IMG/VR virus record: IMGVR_UViG_2711768067_000013
Span: 1-19,806 of that record
Direction: 5' to 3' (one strand)
DNA length: 19,806 nt
DNA from: a virus
Lineage: Duplodnaviria; Heunggongvirae; Uroviricota; Caudoviricetes
Both the position numbers and the translations under genes were made by a program. Shown here in pieces: positions 4,658-19,806 of the stretch (position 1 is its first letter; each line of letters starts with the position of its first letter). The notes beneath the pieces were generated by a model that was not told the DNA's origin, ran no database searches, and saw nothing but the letters and a program-made list of their open reading frames with translations.

Positions 4658-4855
4658 TTATTGTTTTTTAGAACAGTAGTATGTAATTGCTTCAAAAGTG
4701 CTGCATCCAGTCTGAAACACACGCTGCCGCACATTATTTGCATCAATTTCTAAAAGGCGGCAAAGCGCCGATGTGTTTATAACTGATTCCTCGCTAATAG
4801 CTGCCAGTTCTTTTACAGATTTAAGAATTAATGCCTGTGAATTTTCTGTATTCAT
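4658..4855 (-). CDS. Hypothetical small protein (65 aa)
   Basis: ATG at 4855 with a purine-rich stretch upstream; lies between the 343-aa and 613-aa genes on the same strand. Confidence 0.4.
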   Translation of the reverse strand: MNTENSQALILKSVKELAAISEESVINTSALCRLLEIDANNVRQRVFQTGCSTFEAITYYCSKKQ

Positions 4856-5018
4856 TGGTTTTCTCTCACATATATATTTTTATTTGGTTTTGTAGACAGT
4901 AGAAAAACAAAAAGGGCAAAGAGATTCGTTACTGTATTTGCGCCTACAGGTTAGTTAATCCCTTTACCCTTAGCCCCGATTATTTTCAGACGATGGGGAA
5001 TCGTCTATTAACGCTTTA

Positions 5019-6050
5019 TTACGCAGCAGATCCGAAGATGATAGCTTGCGGAATGTTGTTTACTGGCAGATAAGATGTCTCAGTAACCACAGATGGGAAT
5101 TGGAATTCATCCTTGATTAGATATTGGTGATGTAACACGGCATCTTGACCTAACTCAGCATGACGCACACCAACGCCGCTATGAAGCTGGTAACACTGTG
5201 CCGCTTTATCCATTACCGGAACAATTGCGAAACCGTTCTCTCCGATGTGAGCAACAATCTCAGGAAACATTGACACATCAATAGCAGTGATCCCGCCAAT
5301 CTGGAAAGAGTCATAGGCTGGGTTAGAATCAACCATACGGGTAAACAGGGCCGTAGCACTCGCATCACCTGCATATTTCACCATGTCACTGATCAGCGGG
5401 TTAGATGACAAACCATCAGCAGCAGCGCCAGCAGCAAAGATAATTACACCAGTTCGCTTTGCAGCAAGAGCAGACCCCAGCTTTTCACTCTGTAAGCGCA
5501 CCGCTTTACGAATAGCAAGGAACGGGTTAACAGTAGTCGATGCAAAGTCGATAGCGGGTACCGTGGTTTTAGCCTGACCGTCGAGGAAGTCGAGATCACC
5601 TTGTCCGGCATATTCAGATTCAACTTTCAGTCCCAGCAGCGCGGTAATCAGATCCACTTCAACACGGTTTGCGTGTGAACGGTAATGAGCCTCAGAGAAA
5701 TCATTAACCGCTACCAGCATAGCATCAGAACGGTTTGGATATTGGCGGCTGTATTGTTCCAGGTCACGAGAAGTAACAGCGTTAATACTGCCGACGTGTT
5801 TCATCTGGAAAAGTTTGTTTGACCATTCCTGACGTTTAGAGGCGTTCCAGTCGCTTTGAGCGTAAGGCGAGGTTTCCCCAGCTACCTGCACAAACTGATC
5901 AATCAGGTCGGTAAGAAGAATGCTGTTTTCTGTATGATATTGCACATCGAACAGATCGAGATTAGTAATCAGGGTATTAAGTGCATTCTCATAAGCAAAT
6001 GGAGTTACTACCGCAGTATTAACACCAAAATATGTTGATAAATCATTCAT
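5019..6050 (-). CDS. 343-aa hypothetical protein, candidate major virion structural protein (capsid- or tail-tube-like); function not established
   Basis: ATG at 6050 with AAGGAAAA 8 nt upstream, and only 14 bp after the upstream 127-aa gene. A stem-loop follows the stop (4988-5006). No enzymatic motifs; the call rests on size and gene context. Confidence 0.6.
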   Translation of the reverse strand: MNDLSTYFGVNTAVVTPFAYENALNTLITNLDLFDVQYHTENSILLTDLIDQFVQVAGETSPYAQSDWNASKRQEWSNKLFQMKHVGSINAVTSRDLEQYSRQYPNRSDAMLVAVNDFSEAHYRSHANRVEVDLITALLGLKVESEYAGQGDLDFLDGQAKTTVPAIDFASTTVNPFLAIRKAVRLQSEKLGSALAAKRTGVIIFAAGAAADGLSSNPLISDMVKYAGDASATALFTRMVDSNPAYDSFQIGGITAIDVSMFPEIVAHIGENGFAIVPVMDKAAQCYQLHSGVGVRHAELGQDAVLHHQYLIKDEFQFPSVVTETSYLPVNNIPQAIIFGSAA

Positions 6051-6064
6051 TATTATTTTCCTTG

Positions 6065-6448
6065 TTAAGTCGTAGGGATCGCAAGTTCTTCATAACCAGC
6101 AATTACAAAGCCGAGAGATTGCAGTTTTGCAATAACACTTGCCTTTTCCATGCTGTTAAATTCAATCCCATCTTCAGCCAGAATAACGAAAGTAGGATGT
6201 GCAACCACTACGCTTTCCTGTCCTTCATAAGCCGGTTCAACTACTACGTGAGCAATATCAGATGCGGTTGTTGCTTTGGTGCCATCGGCTTTCAGCAAAG
6301 CCCCGACAATAAGATCGTCAGTGAGAGGTGAAGCCAGTTTGACGAGGCGATCTTGCAGCACTGGATCAGCAGCGTAAGCTACTACCTTACAGCGTGAACG
6401 GGAGTTATCCGCATTCACTGCTTTTAATTTTCCATATGGGTTAGCCAT
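6065..6448 (-). CDS. 127-aa hypothetical protein, possibly a head-decoration or tail-terminator-like partner of the 343-aa protein
   Basis: ATG at 6448 with AAAGGAAAA upstream, an RBS context almost identical to that of the 343-aa gene; 4-bp gap from the upstream 65-aa gene. Confidence 0.55.
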   Translation of the reverse strand: MANPYGKLKAVNADNSRSRCKVVAYAADPVLQDRLVKLASPLTDDLIVGALLKADGTKATTASDIAHVVVEPAYEGQESVVVAHPTFVILAEDGIEFNSMEKASVIAKLQSLGFVIAGYEELAIPTT

Positions 6449-6452
6449 AAGA

Positions 6453-6650
6453 TTATTTTCCTTTCAGTTGTTTAATTTTAGATTTAAGGGCATCAGCAAG
6501 ACTAACCGCATCAGCCGATTTAAATAATTGAGCAGTGGTAGAACGAAGACTTTCGGGAGTAACTCCCAACAGTGCGGCAACCTTAATGAGGTTTTCATCA
6601 CTAACAATCATCGTTTCCCCGTCTTTGCTGATAATCATTTCTTGTTTCAT
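6453..6650 (-). CDS. Hypothetical small protein (65 aa from the ATG at 6650; the track ORF extends to a TTG at 6692)
   Basis: ATG at 6650-6648 with AGGAA 9 nt upstream; first gene after the terminator-like hairpin at 6682-6731. Confidence 0.45.
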   Translation of the reverse strand: MKQEMIISKDGETMIVSDENLIKVAALLGVTPESLRSTTAQLFKSADAVSLADALKSKIKQLKGK

Positions 6651-6681
6651 AAATAACGTTCCTGTTAGTGCCAGACAAATA

Positions 6682-6731
6682 AAAAGCCCCAATGCCGTAA
6701 GAGGTTAATTCTGACCAGCAAAGGGGCTTTA
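6682..6731 (-). terminator. Terminator-like hairpin immediately upstream of the structural-like block (minus-strand sense)
   Basis: AAAGCCCC and GGGGCTTT arms (6682-6690 and 6724-6731) around a ~33-nt loop, followed on the minus strand by TTTTTATTT. The large loop makes this a weak call. Confidence 0.3.
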
Positions 6732-7326
6732 ACGTGCGGGCAATTACATAATTGATAAGTTAAACTATAAGAGGATTAAACATATCAGCAAATACACTTT
6801 TTAAATATACTTGATGATATGCTTAAAGGGTGAATAGATACTCCTGAAAACATGCTCTTAGGAAAACATGCGGAATCAATCAGGAATATCTATTCGGGGC
6901 GCGGTGGCCAACCGCTATCTTTCATGGTGTGGATGCACCAGTCAGATTTTAAGGAATCACTATTCCAATCTACTCACAGATTAAATTTTTAATAATGATT
7001 AACTACACCAACAGTAATCTACCGTTTCAGAAAATCGTTTTTACAACCAAAGCTTATAGATCCGCATTCTATAAAACCCGTTTTGCTATCAATATTTCCA
7101 AAGGTTATTGCACAATTCTTAGCTAAACTCTCTACTTGCGGCTAACGCTACGCAGATGATAGTTTTTTGACAACAACTTAATAGATTATTCTGTTACTAA
7201 CTTCTGTCATTAAATAAGAGTTTAATGATGTTAGTAAATAGTTATAAAATATAACTATCAGTGTAAGGCTCTTTAATGTTTTCGGACAAAATAAGGAGCT
7301 TTAGGATAAGCATAGATGAAAATAAG

Positions 7327-7364
7327 AGCGGGAAGGGCAAGGAGATAACACCTACCCGCTTTTA
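7327..7364. terminator. Bidirectional terminator-like hairpin in the 930-bp spacer
   Basis: agcgggaagg (7327-7336) pairs with cctacccgct (7351-7360) with one mismatch; T-tracts follow on both strands (TTTTAT plus; CTTATTTTC minus). It lies ~270 bp downstream of the 102-aa gene in minus sense. Confidence 0.4.
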
Positions 7365-7633
7365 TCAAAATTAAGCACAATGCCTAACAACATTCATCAA
7401 CACAACGTAGAAACAATCAACAATCAAAGAGGGAGTTATGATTATTCTAAAACTTCTTGAGGGGATGGAAGGTAATATTTGTTAGAGGTTAATGCCACTC
7501 AACCCTTGAGGCTATCACCTTCCATATGCAGGGATTTATGACAGTAGAAGGATTAACACCAGTCAAAACCTTTTTATCTACCCCTAATATCATTATATAA
7601 TGAAATTGTTATAAATGCAAATGATTTTCATTA

Positions 7634-7942
7634 TCACTTAGAAGAAATAGCACTTTTTGCTAAATCATCTACTAATTGCTGAATCTCTTCACTTGCAGCC
7701 TTTAACGTGCTGGCGCTGCTGCTGATGGTTTGAGTGCACAGCCTGGCATCGTCCTCTGATAGCTCTAAATCGCTCACCAGAGAGATAAAATCGTCAAGGC
7801 TTACATTCACCTTCATTAAGCTAATAACGCATTGAGAGAGCGTGTAATCGCATAAATCTGAATAGGCTTGATTTATTCTTGTTTGTAGTGAGATAGTCAG
7901 ATCTAAAAGTTGTTCCATTGCATTGCTAATATCTTCTTCCAT
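7634..7942 (-). CDS. Hypothetical acidic protein (102 aa)
   Basis: ATG at 7942 overlaps the stop of the upstream 67-aa gene (TAATG), suggesting translational coupling. Confidence 0.5.
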   Translation of the reverse strand: MEEDISNAMEQLLDLTISLQTRINQAYSDLCDYTLSQCVISLMKVNVSLDDFISLVSDLELSEDDARLCTQTISSSASTLKAASEEIQQLVDDLAKSAISSK

Positions 7943-8145
7943 TATGCGGCTTCTCCTTGTAATGCATCATTAATCATATTCAATACGATGTTAAAAGGTG
8001 TCTTGAGCGTCAGCACTTCATCACGATAACGCTCTAATGCTTCGTAGTCTTCTGTTTCTTTTGCCAGTCGGATTAACTCAGCATAGTTTTTTGCATCAGA
8101 CAGGATCATCTGAAATAATTGTGTTTCCTGTATATGGTCGATCAT
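7942..8145 (-). CDS. Hypothetical protein (67 aa)
   Basis: ATG at 8145 with AAGGAA 6 nt upstream. Confidence 0.5.
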   Translation of the reverse strand: MIDHIQETQLFQMILSDAKNYAELIRLAKETEDYEALERYRDEVLTLKTPFNIVLNMINDALQGEAA

Positions 8146-8162
8146 TGTTGTTCCTTTTATTT

Positions 8163-8549
8163 TTAGTTTGAACGTTTGTTAGATGCGAGAGTGTCGATCA
8201 GGTGCTGCATCAGATCTGTTTCTGTAACGCCGCCTACCTGATTGTTGAAACTATTAAAACCGATATAGTGCCTGTAGCTGGTAAAATTTAACAGCTGCCA
8301 TTTCTTTAATGTGCCAGGTTCTATAATCGTTGTCTTTCTTGTTCTGGGTTTGAAATACACACCATCACCCATTGATTGAATAATTTCTAATTCTTCGTTT
8401 GTAAGTGGTGGGCTGTTAGATTCTAAAATGAAGATTATCTCTTCCCCTGGAATTTCGTTATTGGTGTGTGTCGGTGGACGTTGTCTTGTTGAATTGAAGT
8501 TACTGTTTTTTTCAATACGTTTTAAGTTGTTCTTTTTCTTTCTTCCCAT
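8163..8549 (-). CDS. Hypothetical protein (128 aa), basic N-terminus
   Basis: ATG at 8549 with AGAGGGA upstream. Confidence 0.5.
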   Translation of the reverse strand: MGRKKKNNLKRIEKNSNFNSTRQRPPTHTNNEIPGEEIIFILESNSPPLTNEELEIIQSMGDGVYFKPRTRKTTIIEPGTLKKWQLLNFTSYRHYIGFNSFNNQVGGVTETDLMQHLIDTLASNKRSN

Positions 8550-8645
8550 TTTCCCTCTTTTTATGTGGATTATAAAAACTGAATGCCATAGTTACGATGA
8601 ATATCGCCATAAATGCATTTGCCATATGTATTGCCCGATCTGTTG

Positions 8646-8903
8646 TTATTGATTGTTTGTGATAAACAATTCAAAATCTTTGTTTAATTTCAAAAGACGA
8701 AATGTAGTGTGGTTAATCCCTTCATAATCCAGCACACCGAACGATGTAAAATGATTTACGTGTTGTGCGCTGTAGCCGCCTAAACTACAAAAGCTAACCA
8801 CTGTCGGTGGTGAAAACTCTATTTCCAAAATAGCTTTTAAAATGTTGTATCCGCTTTCAGTTATTTCAATAGTTTTGTTTCCTATAGTGATGTTATAAGT
8901 CAT
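8646..8903 (-). CDS. Hypothetical protein (85 aa)
   Basis: ATG at 8903 with AAGGAG 6 nt upstream. Confidence 0.5.
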   Translation of the reverse strand: MTYNITIGNKTIEITESGYNILKAILEIEFSPPTVVSFCSLGGYSAQHVNHFTSFGVLDYEGINHTTFRLLKLNKDFELFITNNQ

Positions 8904-8912
8904 TTATTCTCC

Positions 8913-9587
8913 TTAGAATGGTATTGAATCGTATATTTCACTTTTTTCTCTTAGAGATATTATCAGATCGTGAAAAGCCTGTTTCTCAAGATAGATATTC
9001 TTTGAATCTAATGCTCGTTTTACAAAATCTTCTGTTTCTTCGTGCGGTGGCTTCTTGTTATCAAGGGAAAGAAGCCAGTTAAAAATCTTTTCCGGGAACT
9101 CTGATTCCTGTATTTCTTCTTCAACGATGATTTCTGAAACATTCAATATTTCATTAGATTCGTTTTCTTTCTCAGAAGGATCAGGTAGTGATGACTCTCT
9201 AGGGGGAGTAATATGTGCATCTGTGAGAGGTAGCGCACGTAATTTTAATGGACGTTTTGGGATTCGTTCTCCGACCTCTTCTAAAAGACCGATTTTAATC
9301 ATAAGACCAATCAATTCATTAACTGTCTTACGGCTACAGCCACAAACTTTACTTAACTTCGTTTGTGTTTCAAAACATATCCCCCCTGATTTCTCCCAAT
9401 CTGAAACATAGCAATATAATTTTTGCATTTCTGCACTAAACTTCGCTTTTCCATCCTCAATATTTGAGGAGTAGATGAATTCAATCTCACAAAAGTAGTG
9501 TGGTATATTCAAAGTTCGGTCTTTAATTTCTCCTGTTTGTTGATCAACATACTGGTATTTTTCACGAATCAATTTAATTTTAGACAT
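8913..9587 (-). CDS. 224-aa putative DNA-binding protein (winged-helix-like segment SRKTVNELIGLMIKIGLLEE); candidate regulator or replication-initiator-like protein
   Basis: Track ORF 8913-9644 starts at GTG; the ATG at 9587 has a strong AAGGAG 8 nt upstream. The C-terminal half is acidic. Function is inferred from the motif only. Confidence 0.5.
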   Translation of the reverse strand: MSKIKLIREKYQYVDQQTGEIKDRTLNIPHYFCEIEFIYSSNIEDGKAKFSAEMQKLYCYVSDWEKSGGICFETQTKLSKVCGCSRKTVNELIGLMIKIGLLEEVGERIPKRPLKLRALPLTDAHITPPRESSLPDPSEKENESNEILNVSEIIVEEEIQESEFPEKIFNWLLSLDNKKPPHEETEDFVKRALDSKNIYLEKQAFHDLIISLREKSEIYDSIPF

Positions 9588-9640
9588 TAGAATTATCTCC
9601 TTATAAATCACGCTTAATGCGCTACTAAAGTGAATGAGGA

Positions 9641-9808
9641 TCACTTACCCTTTTTTTGTTTGATGTTCTCTGCTGCTTCAGTAATGATTTCTAACATCAA
9701 ATCACTGACCATAATTTGCCTTTTCTTGGCTTCAGCAAATAAAATCTTGAAAATTTCAGGGTCAACGTGTAGGTAAGTGCGTGGAATTGGTTTCTTGGTT
9801 TCGCTCAT
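9641..9808 (-). CDS. 55-aa ribbon-helix-helix-like small protein (MSETKKPIPRTYLHVDPEIFKILFAEAKKRQIMVSDLMLEIITEAAENIKQKKGK); absent from the ORF track because it is under 60 aa
   Basis: Hand-translated: ATG at 9808-9806 with AGGAGAAGGAG upstream, TGA at 9643-9641. A predicted strand followed by two helices fits Arc/CopG-type repressors. Confidence 0.45.
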   Translation of the reverse strand: MSETKKPIPRTYLHVDPEIFKILFAEAKKRQIMVSDLMLEIITEAAENIKQKKGK

Positions 9809-9829
9809 AGTTTTCTCCTTCTCCTGTTA

Positions 9830-10012
9830 TTATTCTTTCTCTGCTCCTGCCTTACGCAGTTCATCAATAATTTTTAGTGCATCGTCAAAACATTTTTCAC
9901 GCTCTGGATAACCACAGCGTCGCGCTGTGTTCCTGTTCATCCTTACTTTAAAACGATTGATCTCACCACGTTTCCAGGCTTCAACTACATCCTGGGGAGT
10001 GAAATACTTCAT
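9830..10012 (-). CDS. Hypothetical protein (60 aa), first gene of the minus-strand array
   Basis: ATG at 10012 with AGGAGG 7 nt upstream; 21 bp before the RHH-like ORF. Confidence 0.5.
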   Translation of the reverse strand: MKYFTPQDVVEAWKRGEINRFKVRMNRNTARRCGYPEREKCFDDALKIIDELRKAGAEKE

Positions 10013-10134
10013 TAATTAACCTCCTATTCTATTTGGTTAAAAGAAAAAACACCTTGCAAGCCTTGTTGGGCTTCAAAGTGCGGTGCATTGGTTTAATTAC
10101 TTAGAGGATAAGAATGTTTTCTGTCCCTAATATT

Positions 10135-10163
10135 ACTTTACCACGACTAAAAGCTTTTGTCAA
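10135..10163 (-). promoter_or_regulatory. Candidate sigma70 promoter for the minus-strand array (TTGACA, 17-bp spacer, TAAAGT)
   Basis: Minus-strand TTGACA is the reverse complement of 10158-10163; TAAAGT is the reverse complement of 10135-10140. Motif match only. Confidence 0.3.
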
Positions 10164-10324
10164 CCCCTATCCATAAAAATATTGATCATTTTCAGTGTGT
10201 TATAATTTTTCTTAGCAATTCGTGCTCTTACGGGTGCTCCTATTCTTCCTTATTCTCTAAAACGCTCTAAAACGCCCTCTGACGAGGTTTTGATAAATAC
10301 AATACATTCACTTATGTAGAGGCT

Positions 10325-10780
10325 GTTTAGCTCGCCAGAGGCTTATTTAAGGGGCTTATTTTGTATTTGTTAGGTATATGGGAAGATGATGATAGATAAA
10401 ATCTAATTTCAGACATCTTATAAAATACCTGTAAAGCTCCTCAGAAGCTCTATAACGAGCTAATCTATTACCGCTAAGTGTTTCCCTGCCTTATATACGT
10501 TTAGCTCGCCTACGGCTTGATTTAAGCGGTAGAATCTTATTTAACCTTCAACTACTAAAACCATTCTTTCTTTTTTGTTTGTTGTTGGTTGTTGTCTGTG
10601 TCTATGTGCTAACATCGCTAACGCGTAGCACACAAGGTTATTGCACTCGTCAGAGTATTGCACAATAGATTTTCTCTTAAATAGATTGATGATCGTTAGA
10701 TTGGCGTAAGCCTCATCAATGGAACTATTGAAGCGCACAGCGCAAGACTATTTAGCCTTACGCAAGCCGTAGGCTATTTG
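10325..10780. repeat. Repeat family in the noncoding region: two direct ~28-31-bp copies (10325-10352, 10499-10529) and one inverted, itself palindromic copy (10749-10780)
   Basis: Copy 1 gtttagctcgccagaggcttatttaagg; copy 2 gtttagctcgcctacggcttgatttaagcgg; copy 3 reverse complement contains GCCTACGGCTTG. A TTG/TGT-rich tract (about 10565-10610) and several CTAAC pentamers lie between copies 2 and 3. Confidence 0.5.
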
Positions 10781-10961
10781 CACATAGTAGATTACATATT
10801 CGTTGTGAGCGGCATTAGCGAACATATATCTACTAACTAACATCAACAAACAAAAACTATGTGTTATGACAAGCAGTCTAACGACTAACACTCTAACTTG
10901 TGCAAGGTTCTGGCGAATGCCAATAGATTAAGGGATAGTCAAAGACTCCCTAACGGGTATA

Positions 10962-11045
10962 CCTATAATTATTCTTATAAAGATAAAAAAGAATTATATT
11001 ATATAGTTTAATAGTTAGTTTTATTATTAGTATTATAGATGTTAG
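10962..11045. other. Very AT-rich tract next to the iteron-like array; candidate DNA-unwinding element
   Basis: About 85 bp of almost pure A/T directly upstream of the palindrome array. Confidence 0.35.
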
Positions 11046-11053
11046 TCTTATTG

Positions 11054-11224
11054 TGTAACCTTTCGTTACAACCAATCATCTGCCGATGTAACGTATCGTT
11101 ACTACCGATGTGTAATATCGTTACATTCAATAATTAGTCTATGTAACGAATCGTTACTACAAAATTTCTTACAGAGAGTATTTCAGATAGCTGAATGTAA
11201 CCCATCGTTACATCCATCGTTACA
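11054..11224. repeat. Iteron-like array: five palindromes with a TGTAAC / GTTACA core (11054-11070, 11087-11103, 11111-11125, 11142-11158, 11196-11212) plus an extra half-site (11216-11224); two units form a tandem 22-bp repeat (11083-11126)
   Basis: Read directly, for example TGTAACctttcGTTACA, GTAACGtatCGTTAC, GTAACGaatCGTTAC and TGTAACccatcGTTACA. Could be a replication origin, a recombinase res-like site or a repressor operator. Confidence 0.6.
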
Positions 11225-11661
11225 TCCATTTATCACATAACATCTGTGCAATGATCTTCTAAAAGTGTTTCTTACTATCAAAAATTAAACATCTAAAACA
11301 GGCTTAAATTCAATGTAATTGATGATTAATCCCTGTGTAATTCCTACGTAAAAATTCAATGAAAAGTAGCTTAAAAGTGCAATTCTTACTTTCTTCACTT
11401 TTACATCACTTTCGCAAAGCCTTGTGTAATGCGGCATATAGCGCATCACTGCAAAATTGTTGCTCAATAAACGTTCTATCATTTGTCGAACAAGTTTTCT
11501 TTAATGCAACAAAAAATTATTTTTTCAAAATAAACACACCATTTAATAGCTTGCTAATTTTACCAAAACGTAACTACATGCTTCTCATGCAAGACGTGTA
11601 GTGATAAAGCAGGCTAAATCACCACACTAAAAACCTTCGAATTTCGTAGTGAAAAAAGTCC

Positions 11662-11691
11662 TTTACACACCTAATCAACACGATCAATAAT
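11662..11691 (+). promoter_or_regulatory. Candidate promoter for the serine recombinase (TTTACA, 18-bp spacer, AATAAT)
   Basis: Motif match ~35 bp upstream of the ATG at 11727. Confidence 0.3.
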
Positions 11692-11726
11692 CACTACACA
11701 CAAATCAACACAGAAGGAAAATGAAA

Positions 11727-12278
11727 ATGGCTAATATTGGATACATTAGGGTATCGACTGTGCAACAAAACACAGACCGTCAATTAGCTGGAGTAACTCT
11801 TGATAAAGTCTTTGAAGATAAAGCGTCAGGCAAGAACACTCAGCGCCCACAGTTTGAGGCAATGATGAACTATGTGCGGGAGGGTGACGTGTTACACGTC
11901 CATAGTATTGATCGCCTTTGTCGTAATACAGCCGACCTTCTGGCAACGGTTGAGCAATTAACAGAGCGCGGCGTGTCTGTGCATTTCCATAAAGAAGACT
12001 TTAAGACAGGGAAGAACTCTCCCGCAGGGAATATGATGCTCACAGTGCTTGCAGCAGTGGCACAAATGGAACGTGAAATGATGCTTGAGCGGCAACGTGA
12101 AGGGATCGCCGCAGCTAAGGCCGCTGGGCGTATAGCAAAACGTGGTAATGGAAAAGCAATTGATCGAGCAGGAATTGCTGCCGCTCTCGCGAATGGTGGA
12201 TCAATTCGGAGCGTAGCAAAAGATTTCAGTGTCAGCACACAGACGGTGCAACGTATCAAGAAAGAGCAGGAAGCGTAA
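11727..12278 (+). CDS. Small serine recombinase (resolvase/invertase family, ~183 aa)
   Basis: N-terminus MANIGYIRVSTVQQNTDRQ carries the resolvase catalytic-Ser motif; a C-terminal helix-turn-helix-like region (SIRSVAKDFSVSTQTVQRIKK) follows. The ATG at 11727 is better spaced from the AAGGA than the ATG at 11721. Confidence 0.85.
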   Translation: MANIGYIRVSTVQQNTDRQLAGVTLDKVFEDKASGKNTQRPQFEAMMNYVREGDVLHVHSIDRLCRNTADLLATVEQLTERGVSVHFHKEDFKTGKNSPAGNMMLTVLAAVAQMEREMMLERQREGIAAAKAAGRIAKRGNGKAIDRAGIAAALANGGSIRSVAKDFSVSTQTVQRIKKEQEA

Positions 12279-12618
12279 TGCCTCCTGATATTTGAGAATT
12301 GTCGCTGCGTGGACCTGACGCCGCTGATCTTCTCGTTAAGCGATGATCACGTATGCGCCGATTTCAGAGAAAAAGACAGTAACTGAACTCACTATGAAGG
12401 CTAAACGCATCTTTACACTTGATGAAAACGTTCAAAAAACAACCTAACCCCAAAATTCAACAAATTGCAACACATTGTTTTTAAAAGAAAATTAAATCTA
12501 CATCAAATATTGGTTGACGTAGATTGAGGTGAATAGTAGACTATTAGGGTAAATTACCACCCTTGCAACATCATTTAATGCATGTTCTAATCTTCCTATC
12601 GTAAAACCGGAGGAAGTT

Positions 12619-12777
12619 ATGCATTTACTTTCAAAACATCTTCACACTATTCACTTTCTCGTTATTGATGTATTCGTTGTGGCTATTAGTTACCGCATTT
12701 GCATCGCTTCCAGTGAAGAGATGGACGCTGTTGCAATTATTGCTCAAGCAATGGCGATGTTAACTAAACGACTTTAA
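12619..12777 (+). CDS. 52-aa small hydrophobic protein (MHLLSKHLHTIHFLVIDVFVVAISYRICIASSEEMDAVAIIAQAMAMLTKRL); not in the ORF track
   Basis: ATG at 12619 with GGAGGA 5 nt upstream; contains a predicted membrane-like helix. Confidence 0.4.
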   Translation: MHLLSKHLHTIHFLVIDVFVVAISYRICIASSEEMDAVAIIAQAMAMLTKRL

Positions 12778-12843
12778 TAATTTCACTATCAGGTGCATAA
12801 ACACATCTTTGATCGCTGGATGTGTTATGCGCCTACTGGTGGT

Positions 12844-12996
12844 TCAATCCTTAAGCCATTTCAACTCACTAAGGAGTTTTCTTTCTTCGTTCTCTCGCTG
12901 TTTACGCTCTAGCCAGGCTTTTCCCTCTGGCGTAGACAGGAACTTACGAGCGTGAATCTTGCGGTTATTACGTTTTATAGCTGCAATGTTTTTCAT
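12844..12996 (-). CDS. 50-aa highly basic small protein (MKNIAAIKRNNRKIHARKFLSTPEGKAWLERKQRENEERKLLSELKWLKD); not in the ORF track
   Basis: Hand-translated: ATG at 12996-12994 with GAGG upstream, TGA at 12846-12844. Convergent with the 52-aa ORF. Confidence 0.4.
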   Translation of the reverse strand: MKNIAAIKRNNRKIHARKFLSTPEGKAWLERKQRENEERKLLSELKWLKD

Positions 12997-13600
12997 CGTG
13001 TGCCTCTGTATTCATATGAAAATTAACAAGTTACATACTACACAGGGAGACTACGCATAAAACACAATACAAGTAAAGATACATTTTCAAGACAATAGGA
13101 GCCATAAAGCGCCTTTGATGGTTATACCAAAAAATAAGCGCCGTAGGCGTATCCACTAAAAGGGCTTTTTCACAAAAGCTATGAAGTCTTAGCAGTTCTT
13201 CTCTTATCAGGCACCCGTTGTACTCCGGTGGACGAAACCGTGCTAGAGCTTGATTCTTTCCCGATCAAGTTAGGTTTTGAAGAGGTGGGCTTTGATCCAC
13301 TATTGCACTTAAAACTCTTCCCATCATTTAGCCTGTTTATCCTCTGCAACGTCTCACGACGTGTAGCATCATTGGACACCGCGCCAGGTGTGGAACATCT
13401 TGCTAAGAGTTTTGGTAGAAGGTTTAGAGACGGTGGCACGTCTTCCAGCTTCAAAGGAACTTGTTACGAGGTTGAGCCTGGGAACTACTCGCCCATACGT
13501 GTTACACTACCAAAGCCCATAACAACGTATAGGCGTTTGTAAGTGATAACAGAAGATACAATTTCTTAGAGAAGTTAAGCTAAGTTATTGATTTTCTTAA

Positions 13601-13646
13601 TGGTGCCGATAATAGGAGTCGAACCTACGACCTTCGCATTACGAAT
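13601..13646 (-). tRNA. Truncated tRNA-Thr (CGU anticodon) 3' fragment, 46 nt (anticodon loop through T-arm, acceptor 3' strand and CCA); att-site remnant, not a functional gene
   Basis: Reverse complement reads ATTCGTAATGCGAAGGTCGTAGGTTCGACTCCTATTATCGGCACCA, with the GGTTCGA T-loop and CCA end; sequence diverges from tRNA after 13646. As I recall it, this matches the 3' part of E. coli thrW. Confidence 0.7.
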
Positions 13647-13951
13647 TATAAGAATCCGCTTCTAATTCAAAGCATTACCCCATCAACACTGCGCTCACAC
13701 GTCCCACCACATCAAAACATGTAAAGCCTTGCAAGCCATTGCGAGGCCTTATGTGTCTCAGTTTTGTCCCACCTTGTATTACGACTTACATAGCCAATGA
13801 AGATAAACGTGACGACAAACGGCGCAGCAGTCTTCTTTTCCTTCATACTTTCCCCACCCAGCATGCATACCTTTATGCCATAACTGAAGTTTATGTCTGT
13901 TATGAGCGAAAAGCAGACATTACACTAAATTATTTAGGTTTACTTTTATCA

Positions 13952-14824
13952 TTACATTTCTAATGCTTTTTCTCTGCTAATTGATCCTTCACCATTGCAG
14001 GTTCTGCAATCTAATTTTATATTCCTGCAGTCAGGACAAGTAAATTTTTCATAATTAGAAAGATTCACCTTTGCAGCAATATATCTTTTTACGGATCCCA
14101 TTCCATTACAGATCGGACAATCTTCTCCCGCTAAACTGCCTTTTCCATTACATAAAGGGCAAGTTACAGTGGATATCACTTCATTTTCATTTTCATAAAT
14201 AAAATTGTTGAAATTTTGGGCGTTTATTGTGCTTAGTTGAACTTTTTCAATTTTTTTTATGTGATGTTCAAAATACTTTTTAATTGCCTTCTTAAGATCC
14301 TCTTTAGACGATTTCCATTGTTCTGGTGAGATCCTAATCGATTGAAATCCTTCGTTACTAGTTATTACTGCATCACGCTTGTAAGTAGACTTAATTTTAC
14401 TTTCCACATAATGAGCTATGTGGCCATCATACTCGATGCCAATAGCAGCAATCTCAACCAAATCTTGACCAATCCATCTATTTAGTCTAAGGACAAGGTC
14501 TATTGCCCAAGGCTGGGCTTTTGGGTTTATATTGCCAACCTTATACTGAGGCTCGATATAAACAATATGTCCGTTTGGGAATTGACCTTTCAGAGTTATT
14601 CGTCGTGGTGAATTTTGAAAACTATCGATTTCCAATGGACTAAACTGAGATATGAGGCCGGCAATTACCTCTATCTCAGCCTGAGATGTTTTTTCCACTC
14701 CTTGTAAACTAATAAGACCGATAGCTACTTGACGGTTAGTGGCTGGCTCAATCCTTTTAAATAGTTTCTTCTGATTATTACTAAAATTATTTTTGATAAC
14801 TTCAAGTGTTTCATCTAGTTCCAT
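13952..14824 (-). CDS. PD-(D/E)xK-type nuclease-like domain fused to a C-terminal DnaJ-type zinc finger (four CxxCxGxG-like repeats)
   Basis: Track ORF starts at GTG 14833; an ATG lies at 14824. Candidate nuclease motif D...IGIEYDGHIAHY (DUF559/Vsr-like). C-terminus has CPLCNGKGS, CPICNGMGS, CPDCRN and CRTCNGEGS. AT-rich gene. Confidence 0.65.
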   Translation of the reverse strand: MELDETLEVIKNNFSNNQKKLFKRIEPATNRQVAIGLISLQGVEKTSQAEIEVIAGLISQFSPLEIDSFQNSPRRITLKGQFPNGHIVYIEPQYKVGNINPKAQPWAIDLVLRLNRWIGQDLVEIAAIGIEYDGHIAHYVESKIKSTYKRDAVITSNEGFQSIRISPEQWKSSKEDLKKAIKKYFEHHIKKIEKVQLSTINAQNFNNFIYENENEVISTVTCPLCNGKGSLAGEDCPICNGMGSVKRYIAAKVNLSNYEKFTCPDCRNIKLDCRTCNGEGSISREKALEM

Positions 14825-14928
14825 CTCACCCACTCTATAAACTGATTATCCATATAAACTACATTATCATTTTTAACTGCTCAACATAGATTAACATAGC
14901 GCGATGCTAACAGTGTCAACTCCTGGCA

Positions 14929-14950
14929 CAGGGCTGTTGTTGCAGCCCTG
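14929..14950. other. Perfect 8-bp palindrome with 6-nt spacer (CAGGGCTG ttgttg CAGCCCTG) between the recombinase stop and the nuclease-ZnF gene
   Basis: Read directly; no flanking T-tract on either strand, so probably not a simple terminator. Confidence 0.5.
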
Positions 14951-14956
14951 ACAACC

Positions 14957-15559
14957 TTAGACTTCAATCGATTCAGAGATCTCTAACACATCATCTACTT
15001 CAATACCCAGATAACGGACTGTGCTTTCCAGTTTCTTATGGCCCAACAGAAGTTGGATCACCCGAAGATTCTTGGTTTTCTTGTAGATCAGGTAAGGTTT
15101 TGTTCTTCTCATGGAATGAGTGCTGTAAAGCGAATCTTCGAGACCAAGCTTTTCTACCCACCCATGAAAAATTCGGTTGTATTGCCGGGTAGATATGAGC
15201 TGATTAGTTCCGACCAGAAACCGAAACAAGAAGTCTTTACTATGCAAATTGCCAAGCATTATCAATGCAGCAACAGCTTCTCTTGTCCCTTTGGTTATCT
15301 CAAACTGCACAGGGCTACCGGTTTTCTGTTGCAGCACCGTAGCTCTGCTTGAAGCAGAGCTACCATATGCAACATCAGATACTTTGAGTTTGACCAGATC
15401 ACAGCCTCGTAGCTTACTGTCCAGGGCCATATCGAACTGAGCTAAATCGCGCGTTTTATCTTCCAGTTCAAGCCGGATTCGGATCCCCCAGATATGAGAT
15501 ATCTGAAGTGGTCTTTTTTGGCCGATGATACGGTCTTTGTTCCACGGTGACGTGTTCAT
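14957..15559 (-). CDS. Short tyrosine recombinase (~200 aa, catalytic domain only, FimB/FimE-like size)
   Basis: Track ORF starts at TTG 15613; the ATG at 15559 has AGGAGA upstream. Catalytic signatures: LRGCDL (Arg), HSMRRT (His-x-x-Arg), LLGH, and TVRYL (Tyr). No N-terminal arm-binding domain. Confidence 0.8.
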   Translation of the reverse strand: MNTSPWNKDRIIGQKRPLQISHIWGIRIRLELEDKTRDLAQFDMALDSKLRGCDLVKLKVSDVAYGSSASSRATVLQQKTGSPVQFEITKGTREAVAALIMLGNLHSKDFLFRFLVGTNQLISTRQYNRIFHGWVEKLGLEDSLYSTHSMRRTKPYLIYKKTKNLRVIQLLLGHKKLESTVRYLGIEVDDVLEISESIEV

Positions 15560-15595
15560 ACTCAAATCTCCTGCAATGTGGGAGATTTGAGTATG
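15557..15595. promoter_or_regulatory. Perfect 15-bp inverted repeat with 9-bp spacer (CATACTCAAATCTCC tgcaatgtg GGAGATTTGAGTATG) covering the recombinase Shine-Dalgarno and start codon
   Basis: Arms 15557-15571 and 15581-15595 are exact reverse complements. In the minus-strand mRNA the hairpin would sequester GGAG and AUG. Confidence 0.5.
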
Positions 15596-15765
15596 GTTGT
15601 CCCTTATGAGCAAATCGCAGACGTAACATCAAGTTCATAGCTACCCTGGAGCACCTTATTATCCTGTATAACGATAAGTTGGGAAGCCAGTGGCCTCACA
15701 GTGTCCCCAAGATGGTGGTGTCTCTGCACCAAAGATGCGCTAGTTCAAATGTTAGTAAATATAAT

Positions 15766-16677
15766 TTATATGTAATCAGGTAGTGAATTCAAAGCCATCA
15801 CTCTTTCTCTTTCTTTTTCTGTCATTTCTCTCATAACAATTTGAGATAGCGCTAATGTTATCTCCTTTGTTTTATTGAAGGCTTCTTTGGTATATGTTTT
15901 CCTTCCATACTCAAGTTCATTAAATGTCCCCATAATCCATTTGAGATAGAATAATGGGATGGCTAGATCACTTATATCCTGCCATCTCGTAATCGCTTTA
16001 TATTCATTCCAAAAATAATCCTCAAAATGCTTATCACAATCACCTTTACACGCATAATAAACCGCTATCACCTCATTTGGTTTGTCATCGTGTATGATCT
16101 CTGCATTGCACACAATGCCATCATAATTTTCTTCATGATGGTTTTCTATTAAGTCCTTTCCACAACGATCACATTTTATAGGTAAGTACTTATCAAAAAT
16201 CAAATGCTTGGGTTTTATTTTTTTATAGCTCTCAGGAAAGTATCTAAGGAGTAGTTTTGAGTAACCAATTCTGACTAAGTGATTTTCAATTAATTTACCA
16301 TCAAAGAATCGAAAGTCCTTTATTTTTCCATTCTCTTTTAATTGCGTCATTCTTGAATTTAAACCACTACTTGGCAGTGTTGAGTAAAATCCAATAAATC
16401 CGTCGGCATTGAATCCATCAATACGTTCTTGTATATTAATCTCATCCTTTTCTGAAACTGATTTTTTACTTGTTGCATAATGTTTACAGCTAACAAGCCA
16501 ACGAAATTTATATTTATTTAACTGACCTTGCAATTGCTCTGTGATTAAAAGATCTTTACCTCCATCTGCACCTCTATCTGGCGCGGATTCAATATAAAAG
16601 CCAAGTTCTTCAAGAAAATCACGGGCAAATGACTCCCAGGCTTCACCGTCACTATCAATTTCAGTAAAGTTAATCAT
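15766..16677 (-). CDS. Mrr-like (type IV restriction endonuclease catalytic fold) N-terminal domain fused to a Cys/His-rich C-terminal domain (303 aa)
   Basis: ATG at 16677 with GGGAG 9 nt upstream. N-terminal motifs RGADGGKDLLI and WLVSCKHY fit the Mrr_cat pattern. The C-terminus has CDRCGKD, CNAEI and CKGDCDKH. AT-rich gene. Confidence 0.65.
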   Translation of the reverse strand: MINFTEIDSDGEAWESFARDFLEELGFYIESAPDRGADGGKDLLITEQLQGQLNKYKFRWLVSCKHYATSKKSVSEKDEINIQERIDGFNADGFIGFYSTLPSSGLNSRMTQLKENGKIKDFRFFDGKLIENHLVRIGYSKLLLRYFPESYKKIKPKHLIFDKYLPIKCDRCGKDLIENHHEENYDGIVCNAEIIHDDKPNEVIAVYYACKGDCDKHFEDYFWNEYKAITRWQDISDLAIPLFYLKWIMGTFNELEYGRKTYTKEAFNKTKEITLALSQIVMREMTEKERERVMALNSLPDYI

Positions 16678-16925
16678 TTGTTAACTCCCAAGCGTTGAGA
16701 TATTTTTATATCTGTATTGTGGGCTTATTATAAGCGAGTGTAATTATAATATCATACTAACAGACACAACTTCCGCTTCTGGTACATAGCAGACCAGAGA
16801 CACTGGCGTAAAGCCATGGAGGATCGGTGGGAGGAGGTAAAAATCCTCTCATGCAAAAAATACGCAAAATCGATAACAGTTGGAAATCATTCAATACTCG
16901 CACTATCGGAAGTTCACCAGCCAGT

Positions 16926-16958
16926 CGTAGCACGTTCTTGCATACGACGTGGCTACGG
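16926..16958. repeat. Degenerate second copy of the pin terminator hairpin (direct repeat of 17947-17982), flanking the GIY-YIG gene on the left
   Basis: cgtagcacgttcttgcatacgacgtggctacgg aligns with ccgcagcacgatcttcttgcatacgacgtgctacgg, with small indels. Confidence 0.5.
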
Positions 16959-17054
16959 GTTTCGAGACCGCTCCAATCATCAAACGAAACATAAAATTAA
17001 TTCACATTATGAGGAAAAGTATCTTTTTTATACTATGTAAATTCAAAGGCTTAG

Positions 17055-17924
<870 letters not shown>

Positions 17925-17940
17925 GTCTTTAAGTGATAAG

Positions 17941-17982
17941 CATAAACCGCAGCACGATCTTCTTGCATACGACGTGCTACGG
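17941..17982 (-). terminator. Rho-independent terminator of the pin gene
   Basis: On the minus strand CCGTAGCACG pairs with CGTGCTGCGG (one mismatch) around a 16-nt loop, followed by TTTATG; begins 2 nt after the pin stop. Confidence 0.5.
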
Positions 17983-17984
17983 TT

Positions 17985-18546
17985 TCATTTATCTCCGACC
18001 GGAAACTTCTTATACAGTGTCGATATACCAACATCATAGATGATCGCCACCTTCTGGCGAGGAACGCCTGATGCAATTAATCGTCCGGCCTGCTCCCATT
18101 GTTCTGGTGTAAGTTTGGGACGACGTCCACCAATTCGTCCCTGTGCGCGAGCAGCTTCCAGTCCAGCTTTTGTTCGTTCAACAATCAGTTCACGCTCCAT
18201 TTCAGCCAGGGCACCCATCACATGAAAGAAAAAGCGCCCCATTGGGGTACTGGTATCAATTGAATCCGTCAGACTACGAAAGTTGATGCCTCGTTCGCGC
18301 AACTCCTCCACCAGCACGACAAGATGCCGCATACTGCGCCCCCAGTCTGTCCAGCTTCCAGACAACCAGCGTGTCTCCTGCCGATAGTGTCCTGAGCAGC
18401 TTTTTCAGCCCCGGTCTGTCGGACTTGGTGCCACTGATTTTATCCTCAAAAATCCGCTCACATCCCGCACAGTTCAGTGCATTGCGTTGCAAATCGGTGT
18501 TCTGGTCATTTGTTGACACGCGTACATAGCCAATAAGCATGATCAT
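17985..18546 (-). pseudogene. pin: Pin/Gin/Hin-family serine DNA invertase, disrupted by a +1 frameshift in a C5 run (18339-18343, plus strand)
   Basis: N-terminal ORF (18274-18546) reads MLIGYVRVSTNDQNTDLQ…WKLDRLG, then goes out of frame. C-terminal ORF (17985-18365) reads …GRSMRHLVVLVEELRERGINFRSLTDSIDTSTPMGRFFFHVMGALAEMERE…. Removing one G from the GGGGG run restores WKLDRLGRSMRHL. May be a sequencing error. Confidence 0.7.
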
Positions 18547-18567
18547 CCCCCTGAATAAAAACCGGAG

Positions 18568-19074
18568 ATGATGCCAGTTAGCCGTTATCTCTGCATTTTC
18601 ATAAACGTTGGTTTGGGAGAAGGTTCGGCGTTACCCGTTGGTGTGCCTGTTCCGTGGCCTGCAGCCACTCCGCCAACAGGCTGGCTGAAATGCAATGGTG
18701 CGGCTTTTTCTGCTGAAGAATACCCAGAACTGGCAAAGGCTTACCCGACAAATAAATTGCCTGATTTACGTGGTGAGTTTATGCGTGGCTGGGATGATGG
18801 AAGAGGCGTTGATAGTGGCAGGGGGATTCTCACTGCGCAATCTCATGGTATGCCGTCTATTTCAGGAACGTTTAATGGTCTTTTTGCTGTTAAACAAACA
18901 AATGGTTTAGGTGGTGTTTCTGTAGCAAAAAGTAAAAATGCTGAAACTTTATCTACTTCATCTGGATCAGGTTCCGTGTTTGATTACACGTTTAATGTCA
19001 GCGGTTCGACTCCGGTATCACCAGAACTTCGTCCGCGTAATATTGCATTTAACTATATCGTGAGGGCCGCATAA
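18568..19074 (+). CDS. Tail-fibre protein C-terminal (variable, receptor-binding) segment; probably a silent cassette lacking its constant 5' part in this orientation
   Basis: Translation PVGVPVPWPAATPPTGWLKCNGAAFSAEEYPELAKAYPTNKLPDLRGEFMRGWDDGRGVDSGRG is typical of tail-fibre C-termini. The first ~15 codons read through the crossover site and are probably not native N-terminus. Confidence 0.65.
   Translation: MMPVSRYLCIFINVGLGEGSALPVGVPVPWPAATPPTGWLKCNGAAFSAEEYPELAKAYPTNKLPDLRGEFMRGWDDGRGVDSGRGILTAQSHGMPSISGTFNGLFAVKQTNGLGGVSVAKSKNAETLSTSSGSGSVFDYTFNVSGSTPVSPELRPRNIAFNYIVRAA
18597..18622. other. hix/gix/pix-like 26-bp crossover site for the DNA invertase
   Basis: ttttcataaacgttggtttgggagaa; reverse complement TTCTCCCAAACCAACGTTTATGAAAA has imperfect dyad symmetry resembling invertase sites. 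Lies 50 bp upstream of pin, at the start of the tail-fibre cassette. Confidence 0.5.
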
Positions 19075-19676
19075 TGAATAATGCAGAATTAAATAGTGAA
19101 TTGATTGCTACTGCGGCAGGGAATATTACCGTTTATAACTATGATTGTGAAACACGAGAATATATTTCCACATCAACTGAATATCTTGCTGTGGGTGTCG
19201 GTATCCCGGCATGTTCCTGTCTGGATACACCAGGTATACATAAGGCGGGTTATGCAATATGCCGCTCTGTGGATTTAAATTCATGGGAATATGTGCCAGA
19301 CCATCGAGGTGAAATTGTCTATAGCACCGAAACGGGAGATACCAAAGAAATCACAGTGCCAGGCGACTATCCCGAAAATACAACCACTATCGCCCCGTTA
19401 ACGCCATACGATAAATGGGATGGTGAGAAATGGGTGACCGATATTGAGGCACAGCATAGCGCCGCAGTAGACGCGGCAGAAGCGCATCGCCAATCGCGGA
19501 TTGATGCTGCAATGGCTTCCATCAGTCTGATTCAGCTGAAATTGCAGGCCGGACGTAAACTGACGCAGGCAGAAACAACCCGGCTTAACGCTGTGCTGGA
19601 TTACATTGACGCGGTGGTGGCAACAGATACCAGCACCGCGCCGGATGTCATCTGGCCTGAACTACCGGAGGCGTAG
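19074..19676 (+). CDS. tfa: Tail-fibre assembly protein (Tfa/U-like)
   Basis: ATG overlaps the upstream stop (TAATG). C-terminus …TDTSTAPDVIWPELPEA is typical of Tfa chaperones. Confidence 0.8.
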   Translation: MNNAELNSELIATAAGNITVYNYDCETREYISTSTEYLAVGVGIPACSCLDTPGIHKAGYAICRSVDLNSWEYVPDHRGEIVYSTETGDTKEITVPGDYPENTTTIAPLTPYDKWDGEKWVTDIEAQHSAAVDAAEAHRQSRIDAAMASISLIQLKLQAGRKLTQAETTRLNAVLDYIDAVVATDTSTAPDVIWPELPEA

Positions 19677-19806
19677 GCCATTCAATATCTGGAGCACTGG
19701 AAATATCGACCATTTCCAGTGCATCCAGATAATCCAGCCACAAATTATATTGTGCCAGTTCCTCACCTTTCAGACGACCGATAGCTGCTTTACCAGGCCA
19801 TTGCTT
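19648..19806 (-). CDS. 3' end of a second, oppositely oriented tail-fibre assembly gene (start lies beyond the window)
   Basis: Minus-strand translation ends …KQWPGKAAIGRLKGEELAQYNLWLDYLDALEMVDISSAPDIEWPTPPVVQAR, sharing the APD(V/I)xWP motif with the plus-strand Tfa; the 3' ends overlap by ~29 bp. Confidence 0.65.
   Translation of the reverse strand, partial: KQWPGKAAIGRLKGEELAQYNLWLDYLDALEMVDISSAPDIEWPTPPVVQAR

Follow-up and report, generated by a model that had tools for sequence, protein, structure and literature searches.

An e14-type invertible tail-fibre segment, found in both orientations, beside a frameshifted pin gene

The stretch of DNA analysed (the window, 19,806 nucleotides) very probably ends in the pin-proximal part of an e14-type P segment, a ~1.84-kb invertible cassette of a tail-fibre gene (probability about 0.9). 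Positions 18608..19806 comprise the left 1.2 kb of this segment, and the remainder lies beyond the window end. The system is already known from e14 and Mu, with this locus representing another allele of the P segment found in K-12 e14. Inversion is directly evidenced by a natural isomer that carries the flipped sequence. An earlier note on this DNA had read the locus as an e14 P-segment/Mu G-type switch, and that reading is supported by the crossover sites, in-frame fusions, natural isomers and orthology to e14. As the window itself ends at 19806, the right half of the system was taken from near-identical genomes. E275a (L001) was 100% identical to the window over 17900-19806 and 99.94% identical over 13608-19806.

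The pin-proximal crossover site (pix/gix/hix type) is a 26-bp sequence, TTTTCATAAACGTTGGTTTGGGAGAA, present as a single copy within the window at 18596-18621. It divides 12+2+12 as TTTTCATAAACG-TT-GGTTTGGGAGAA, with the central dinucleotide TT at 18608-18609. The earlier note had correctly recognised an invertase-type site opening the fibre C-terminal cassette but placed it one position off, at 18597-18622. No chance copies of the site were expected (200 shuffles, up to 3 mismatches allowed). Aligned column for column, 17/26 positions were identical to Mu gix, and 26/26 were identical to the K-12 e14 site beside pinE. To the right of the window itself, the distal site would lie about 1.84 kb from 18608, inside the - strand fibre ORF, with the + strand form TTCTCCCAAACCAAGGTTTTCGAGAG. 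Rightward extension, which the earlier note had proposed as a check, located an inverted partner with central TT about 1.84 kb to the right in E275a. The two sites in that genome are at L001 20697-20722 and 22534-22559, which puts the distal site at window-equivalent 20433-20458, past the window end. Its full form reads CTCTCGAAAACC-TT-GGTTTGGGAGAA in E275a. The inner half-sites of the two sites are 12/12 identical, the central TT is common to both, and the orientation is inverted. Each also agrees at 26/26 positions with its K-12 e14 counterpart. When the extended locus was searched for inverted repeats, the best one (20 bp) had the window site as its left arm and L001 22533-22552 as the other. 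The distal site lies in frame within the fibre gene, 3' of a 101-residue constant part (E275a).

The pin-proximal fibre C-terminal cassette is StfE-like and occupies 18568/18571..19074 on the + strand, in an ORF that crosses the site. A leader of 11-12 codons, from an ATG at 18568 or 18571, precedes the site, and the variable part follows it at 18622-19074. The ORF contains a Phage Tail Collar domain (Pfam, E=1.3e-15). It is followed at 19074..19676 (+) by a tfa gene for a TfaE-like assembly chaperone (Caudo_TAP, E=7e-31; 88% identity to K-12 TfaE). The same 200-aa Tfa protein was found, identical, in this module on three different phage backbones. On the - strand, 19648..19806 holds the 3' end of a second, convergent tfa gene (TfaP-like; last 52 codons plus stop), which is cut by the window end. 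This gene is complete in E275a (L001 21749-22192, - strand, 147 aa; Caudo_TAP, E=2e-29). The two tfa genes overlap by 29 nt. The earlier description of one tfa after the fibre cassette and another on the opposite strand with overlapping 3' ends was thus borne out.

The constant fibre part reaches to about window-equivalent 20735, past the window end, by extension in E275a. Its 101 residues are identical to K-12 StfP at 100/101 positions. The tip of the resulting 214-aa fibre gave a Gp53-like_C match below threshold (23.0 bits against a cut-off of 24.9). The tips of the two orientations thus belong to different domain families, Collar and the sub-threshold Gp53-like_C. The cassettes, chaperone genes and both sites were all intact, and no further decay was seen.

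The pin-side cassette was said to lack a constant 5' part, and just the short leader is indeed found ahead of the site. The constant N-terminus is absent, and no promoter-like site was found upstream of this ORF on its own strand, so that it is neither a complete fibre gene nor one with a recognisable promoter of its own. The earlier note presumed the cassette silent. This holds in the sense that it is not part of the virion fibre; the word is safe only in that sense, because K-12 StfE2 is reported to have anti-phage activity when produced (PMC12529663).

In-silico inversion of the extended locus gave in-frame fusions in both states, a 214-aa fibre in the native state and a 251-aa fibre in the flipped state, with residues 1-101 in common. 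The flipped sequence was matched at 100.0% over 3001 nt, in one piece, in HCP17S3_I4. The native construct was matched in E275a, 30EVA1 and 2018-06-4CC. Gene annotations for the 251-aa fibre exist in HCP17S3_I4, L015 and L016, and the 214-aa fibre is likewise annotated in natural isomers. Breakpoints of the natural inversions fall within the 20-bp repeat. In HCP17S3_I4 the 1.85-kb segment alone is reversed; one 6.6-kb flank is identical and the other carries one mismatch and one gap. CP099208 shows the same pattern, with the segment alone reversed between near-identical flanks. L015 and L017 have opposite orientations, likewise with breakpoints at the sites. O157:H7 strains include some in each orientation.

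The segment appears to close the late operon of an e14/SfV-like myovirus prophage, which is full-length and inserted at thrW. The late operon runs from terminase through baseplate and ymfQ to the fibre gene and reads into the segment, and the integrase and a tRNA-Thr are at the opposite end of the prophage. The fibre gene has its constant 5' part, about 101 codons long, outside the segment and one of two 3' cassettes inside it. Each cassette is followed by its own tfa chaperone gene, with the two cassette-plus-tfa units facing each other. Pin, a Din-family serine invertase, would make staggered cuts at the central TT/AA of the two inverted 26-bp sites, and the segment would flip. This would bring another receptor-binding tip and its matching chaperone into use, the tip being fused in frame to the constant part, and flipping may change host range. 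In the window orientation the gp53-like tip (214-aa fibre) would be on the constant part, and the Collar cassette and 200-aa Tfa would be unexpressed beside pin.

E275a is collinear with the window over 13608-19806 and 1-534 alone. The remainder of the window is a 13-kb island absent from E275a, and E275a was rejected on this ground as the source of the window. No complete E. coli genome covered at least 80% of the window in a whole-window search. An exact-pattern contig scan matched the island junction only in a 9.4-kb contig labelled as a Bacillota MAG, which carries the island. Among contigs traced by the 185-aa protein of the island, the island was found at other chromosomal sites and never beside this prophage.

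The closest comparison is with K-12 e14 (stfP-tfaP / tfaE-stfE, pinE). Gene order and orientation are those of the MG1655 reference, the convergent tfa genes have the same 29-nt overlap, and the site centres are 1837 bp apart here and 1827 bp apart in K-12. Homologues of ymfQ, ymfR, ymfK, ymfT and ymfL are found near the pin locus. The variable tips have diverged: the pin-proximal cassette ORF has 61% identity to StfE, the 147-aa Tfa has 49% identity to TfaP, and the tip of the 214-aa fibre is only partly alignable with that of StfP. The pin gene is frameshifted here, and its 5' third derives from a P2-like prophage. Whereas e14 is a 15-kb remnant at icd, the present element is a full-length prophage at thrW, and a GIY-YIG (LEM-3-like) gene occupies the place of e14 mcrA.

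The Mu G segment (Gin; S/U, S'/U') follows the same logic: it contains two convergent units, each made up of a cassette and a chaperone gene, and the constant 5' part and the closely adjacent invertase gene lie beyond its ends. Mu gix and the window site are equally far upstream of their respective invertase starts, and the core AAAC-N4-GTTT is common to both. The Mu segment is about 3 kb rather than 1.84 kb, its central dinucleotide is TC/GA rather than TT/AA, and its fibre cassettes are unrelated to those of the window over most of their length. The invertases of the Salmonella Hin/H and P1 Cin/C segments, likened by description, are of the same Din subclass; Hin flips a promoter, whereas the window system flips gene 3' ends.

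The very same module is present in P2-like prophages and phages (e.g. Escherichia phage pro483; L010-L013). They have the identical 200-aa Tfa, and the 147-aa Tfa and Collar cassette are also present, as here. Their pin-proximal site is identical to the window site or different at one position. Identity reaches 99.5% for the L010 segment (about 1.86 kb) and 97.6% for L013 across the segment and the invertase 5' end. These loci have a P2 backbone, and the constant part of their fibres (467/504 aa) is an N-terminus of P2 H type; the 3' two-thirds of the invertase gene is only about 80% identical to the window pin.

The pin gene of the window (17985..18540, - strand) is a pinE-type Din-family serine DNA invertase pseudogene with a +1 frameshift. 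The frameshift was missed by the earlier note. The gene is divided into two overlapping ORFs of 126 and 90 aa. The frameshift point is a run of five C (G5 on the pin sense strand) at 18339..18343, at about codon 67, where intact alleles have C4. When K-12 pinE and five further intact alleles were aligned with it, the extra base was the only indel in the coding region; K-12 pinE and the window pin are 91% identical at the DNA level. With one C removed, the reading frame is restored to 184 aa; the protein has a Resolvase domain (E=3.6e-52) and an HTH_7 domain, and its residues 1-181 match Gin invertase (PDB 3uj3, E=4e-96). The identical pin genes of E275a and HCP17S3_I4 are tagged 'frameshifted' in RefSeq. 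A sequencing error is unlikely, because seven independent assemblies have the same G5 haplotype.

The pin allele is mosaic: the initial ~228 nt, in which the G5 run lies, are identical to a P2-like prophage invertase, and the remainder to an e14-like pin. The same G5 frameshift was found in three P2-like loci. Recurrent homopolymer slippage was considered as the source of the frameshift on two backbones and rejected as its main cause, though it may have contributed: the G5 alleles agree throughout one 228-nt 5' haplotype, as would be left by recombination between two genes.

Members of the Din subclass act on two inverted 26-bp sites together with a remote Fis-bound enhancer (PMC3798978); for Gin, this enhancer is located within the 5' end of the invertase gene. 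A 15-bp match to the Fis consensus, GNNYRNNWNNYRNNC, lies at 18456..18470 in the 5' end of pin and is a candidate part of such an enhancer. It is centred at pin +78 and is conserved in K-12 pinE and Mu gin. A strict-consensus search found no second Fis site ~48 bp from the first. By analogy, the window segment may depend on Fis and an enhancer.

With a pseudogene as its neighbouring invertase gene, the window copy of the segment may not be able to flip at present. The G5 carriers nevertheless occur in both orientations, on e14-like and P2-like backbones. We therefore lean towards flipping in trans, with the reaction catalysed by a different small serine recombinase of the same cell. In K-12, inversion of the e14 P segment takes place in culture (PMC4272514). 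PinE, PinQ and PinR are each reported to invert the e14 segment, with Fin/Hin as a precedent for trans action and cross-complementation among Din family members described as documented (PMC12529663).

A frozen fossil is the less probable but most substantial alternative. With pin broken, the segment would be locked and the switch decaying, and the two orientations would have arisen by recombination, by module import or by recurrent +1 slippage. The frameshift does cut the catalytic domain, and the mosaic structure of the pin allele indicates that recombination has moved this region. Recurrent slippage is conceivable because the same 57-nt haplotype is often found with G4. K-12 pinE deletion mutants are also reported (PMC12529663) to be locked in a single orientation even though they have pinQ and pinR; a deletion, unlike a frameshift, may remove the presumed enhancer too. 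Against a fossil, four e14-like loci with 100% identical mosaic pin genes are split two and two between orientations, and their flanks are 99.7-100% identical over 5-10 kb. No G4 form of the mosaic allele was present among 5426 complete genomes, in which the next best pin match was 96% identical. Import of an oppositely oriented segment by homologous recombination would be awkward, because the constant parts differ between P2-like and e14-like backbones. The intactness of the cassettes, chaperone genes and both sites also counts against decay.

A second alternative, which we consider unlikely, is a switch for phage defence. Under this reading the product that matters would come from the short pin-proximal ORF and not from the virion fibre gene. 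Inversion would join its leader to the gp53-like tip, and the resulting StfE2-like protein would keep other phages from adsorbing; the orientation in the window would be the 'off' state. The idea derives from Kirigo et al. 2025, who report for cryptic e14 in K-12 that the pin-proximal chimeric ORF formed by inversion (StfE2) is anti-phage when produced and that StfE2 made from a plasmid blocks T2 adsorption (PMC12529663). All four leader haplotypes retain ATGATGCCA as the start with GGA(G) beside it and keep the ORF open, and inverted isomers have an annotated 130/131-aa ORF with a faint Gp53-like_C match. However, the StfE2 activity in K-12 was seen with plasmid production. The leader residues are not conserved, with all five codon differences between the window and K-12 changing the residue (5/5). 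The SD-like element abuts the ATG, a promoter-like site is lacking upstream on that strand, and the variable tip is only partly similar to that of K-12. The prophage also appears to have its full gene set (integrase, lysis, head, tail and baseplate), which makes a virion role the parsimonious one.

Finally, that there is no switch, the 26-mer resembling a site by chance or as a relic and the tfa genes being no more than convergent neighbours, is scarcely credible: one site alone is visible within the window and the invertase is broken, but the site matches the characterised e14 site throughout, its partner has matching core and frame, and exact natural inversion isomers already refute the idea.

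More speculatively, and with little expectation that it holds, the frameshifted pin allele might not simply be dead. Ribosomal +1 slippage at CUG-GGG-G, or transcriptional slippage on G5, could yield some full-length Pin, so that the frameshift would act as a rate-reducing 'dimmer' and flipping would be rare. Alternatively, the segment could be kept as a shared substrate for flipping by unrelated small serine recombinases; one candidate would be the intact 185-aa enzyme of the 13-kb island, encoded at window 11721-12278. If true, either version would explain both orientations in seven G5 assemblies with intact cassettes.

This is a textbook type of phage tail-fibre switch, presumed to change host range, and its confirmation mainly closes the earlier observation. 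The switch is hidden by genome annotation pipelines, in which the pin-proximal cassette becomes an ordinary 'phage tail protein' and the active fibre is left as a 'hypothetical protein'. The occurrence of both orientations despite a broken cis invertase fits the report of trans flipping by other prophage recombinases (PMC12529663). The same invertible module, nearly identical on three phage backbones, represents a clean modular exchange of receptor-binding cassettes together with their switch.

Bases 17900-19806 of the window (the last 1907) were 100% identical to the chromosome of Escherichia coli E275a (NZ_CP035865.1), which matched 13608-19806 at 99.94% (4 mismatches); even so, the window does not come from this strain. 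The paoD/yagP' end was the counterpart of window 1-534. None of the complete E. coli genomes searched with the window reached coverage of 80% or more. Sequence to the right of 19806 was read from the E275a locus (L001) and other near-identical loci and not from the window's own genome; subtracting 2101 from an L001 position gives the window position.

The 26-mer TTTTCATAAACGTTGGTTTGGGAGAA occurred once in the window, at 18596-18621; by chance, no copy would be expected there even with 3 mismatches allowed. The 26-bp site reported by the earlier note at 18597-18622 is therefore real but was placed one base too far right. It divides 12+2+12 as TTTTCATAAACG|TT|GGTTTGGGAGAA, was identical at 26/26 positions to the site adjoining pinE in K-12 e14, and matched the gin-proximal gix of Mu at 17/26 positions with a common AAAC-N4-GTTT core. 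This site and that of Mu lie equally far upstream of the start codon of their invertase genes. Extension to the right through E275a yielded the inverted partner: the top inverted repeat within 3.6 kb paired the window site with L001 22533-22552 (20 nt, 95%). The full distal site, on the fibre-sense strand, is CTCTCGAAAACC|TT|GGTTTGGGAGAA, sharing the central TT and all 12 bases of the inner half-site. Each of the two sites was 26/26 identical to its K-12 equivalent, and the site centres lay 1837 bp apart versus 1827 bp in K-12. A pattern search of the locus returned no sites beyond these two, so this is a simple two-state switch.

The predicted gene content of the segment was borne out. An ORF (plus strand, ATG at 18568/18571 to 19074) reads through the site; its product has a Phage Tail Collar domain (E=1.3e-15). 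Next comes a first tfa gene, for the tail fibre assembly chaperone (19074-19676, plus strand; 200-aa Caudo_TAP). The C-terminus of a second Caudo_TAP tfa runs on the minus strand from 19648 to the window end (147 aa when whole in E275a), so that the convergent genes overlap by 29 nt. The constant 5' part of the fibre gene, expected further right, was located in E275a as a 214-aa ORF (L001 22192-22836, minus strand) which contains the distal site and directly follows ymfQ and the baseplate genes, the late operon reading towards the window. Residues 1-101 (...ENLGLGE) were identical to K-12 StfP at 100/101 positions.

An inverted isomer was built in silico by exchange at the central dinucleotides and placed a 251-aa fibre in frame, joining the constant part to the Collar cassette. 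E. coli HCP17S3_I4 matched the 3001-nt inverted construct at 100.0% in one piece, and E275a, 30EVA1 and 2018-06-4CC matched the native arrangement. Between E275a and HCP17S3_I4, one 6.6-kb flank was 100% identical, the other showed one mismatch and one gap, and the reversal was limited to a 1849-bp segment, with the alignments overlapping exactly in the 20-bp repeat. The base beside the centre differs between the outer half-sites (G versus C), so that the crossover must lie within the 15-bp stretch TTGGTTTGGGAGAAG. CP099208 provides another inverted isomer of this prophage, two further loci (L015 and L017) form an inverted/native pair with intact pin, and O157:H7 strains included both native and inverted forms. 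The e14 segment is phase-variable within clonal K-12 cultures (PMC4272514) and, according to PMC12529663, was inverted in 33% of the 562 E. coli genomes surveyed there.

In the invertase gene pin (17985-18540, minus strand), one extra G in a G4 run (C5 at 18339-18343, plus strand) splits the reading frame into two overlapping ORFs. RefSeq flags the identical pin of E275a and HCP17S3_I4 as frameshifted. With one base removed, the gene encodes a 184-aa Resolvase+HTH_7 protein matching Gin (PDB 3uj3; E=4e-96). This pin allele is mosaic. Over the first ~228 nt, G5 run included, it was identical to the invertase gene found in P2-like prophages (L010, L011 and L013), which has the same frameshift, and over the remainder to the intact e14-like pin of L017. 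The exact 57-nt G5 haplotype was present in 3/5426 complete genomes, twice in HCP17S3_I4, where it lies in two prophages; the G4 version of this haplotype was common among complete genomes. A G4 version of the mosaic pin allele was not found, the next best pin match being 96% identical. The recombinant gene and the double occurrence in HCP17S3_I4 suggest exchange between co-resident prophages.

The frameshift was carried in native orientation by the window and E275a (e14-like backbone) and L013 (P2-like), and in inverted orientation by HCP17S3_I4 and CP099208 (e14-like) and L010 and L011 (P2-like). Since it recurs in these seven independent assemblies, it is unlikely to be a sequencing error. 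On the simplest reading, the segment went on being flipped in trans once pin was frameshifted. In support, PMC12529663 describes inversion of the e14 segment by PinQ and PinR, only 38% identical to PinE, and action of Fin on the Hin segment; against it, K-12 pinE mutants are reported there as locked. A pinE deletion would, however, also remove the presumed enhancer in the 5' end of the gene, which the frameshift would leave intact. An enhancer is a defining feature of the invertase family; in pin there was one strict Fis-consensus 15-mer, at +78 (18456-18470), conserved in K-12 pinE and Mu gin, and no second strict Fis site was found at the expected spacing. By blastn, one further pin-like sequence was found in E275a and two in HCP17S3_I4. 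An intact small serine recombinase of 185 aa with a Resolvase domain is encoded in the window as well (11721-12278, plus strand). Its identity is 40% to the Pin catalytic domain and 35% to K-12 PinR, and the enzyme could, speculatively, act in trans to flip the neighbouring segment.

That recombinase lies in a 13-kb island absent from E275a (roughly 563-13600; 535-13625 with its borders), bracketed by copies of the tRNA-Thr (thrW) 3' end at 538-562 (3 mismatches) and 13601-13625 (exact). The island has its own integrase (612-1976), and its relatives carry Dit-like and Phage_cap_E-like genes and occupy several other chromosomal sites; it resembles a satellite or a small cryptic phage in tandem insertion at the att site of thrW. 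The contig JAEWTL010000083.1 (9.4 kb; labelled 'MAG: Bacillota bacterium') was 90-99% identical to the E. coli island, across the thrW junction, and probably represents Enterobacteriaceae DNA that was mis-binned. The interval 13952-16940, which separates the att repeat from the next gene, contains a 290-aa hypothetical protein, a 200-aa tyrosine-recombinase fragment, a 303-aa 'restriction endonuclease' and an 81-nt capsid gene fragment, the remnants of an older element that occupied this site; strain 2018-06-4CC has an EcoRII-type R-M pair instead. The next gene (17151-17924, plus strand), convergent with pin, encodes a LEM-3-like GIY-YIG domain protein (Pfam E=2e-14) in the position of the McrA restriction enzyme in K-12 e14; it may have been swapped in as a defence or 'moron' gene at this end of the prophage. 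Outside the window but adjacent to this region, E275a ykgL, ecpE and yagU are annotated as pseudogenes through a frameshift or internal stop (L001 624-852, 7759-8469 and 9359-9972).

The pin-proximal cassette does lack the constant 5' part, as had been proposed, and cannot make a virion fibre because the 101-residue N-terminus is missing. Its presumed silence holds in that sense; no promoter-like site was found upstream on the same strand, but the leader start ATGATGCCA and abutting GGA(G) are conserved in all four haplotypes seen, so translation of the ORF is possible. A minor alternative is that after inversion this ORF yields a StfE2-like product acting in phage defence. Kirigo et al. 2025 describe StfE2 in K-12 as an inversion-made chimeric pin-proximal ORF that blocks T2 adsorption when produced; if this applies, the window represents the state in which the chimera is not formed. 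The leader amino acids are not conserved, which argues against a selected coding function. Between crossover site and pin start, a terminator-like hairpin with a T-run (18560-18579, minus strand; weak consensus match) shares its strand with the late operon and pin and may stop late-operon read-through before pin.

The switch forms the terminal part of a prophage that looks complete. This begins with tRNA-Thr and an integrase adjoining proA, continues through ymfK/ymfT/ymfL-type regulators, replication, lysis, terminase, portal and capsid genes, then sheath, tube, tape measure and Mu-type baseplate, and ends with ymfQ, fibre, invertible segment and pin. Compared with the e14 remnant, to which it is related, it is full-length and sits at thrW and not at icd. 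The locus is orthologous to the e14 P segment, an allelic variant with the same sites, constant part and gene order. Divergence affects the tips and one chaperone (61%, 49% and partial identity). The earlier assignment to the Mu G/e14 P-segment type thus stands, with natural isomers in both orientations. The invertible system is already known, and only the frameshifted invertase, with carriers in both orientations, is perhaps worth a small experiment. An identical module with the same 200-aa Tfa (loci L008-L017) occurs on e14/SfV-like backbones with a Mu-type baseplate and on P2-like prophages, each in both orientations, and also on a third backbone, that of a myovirus carrying Phage_Wedge1 and Sheath_initiator genes (L009); that of phage pro483 is close to this locus. 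Its presence on several backbones illustrates modular exchange of the switch.
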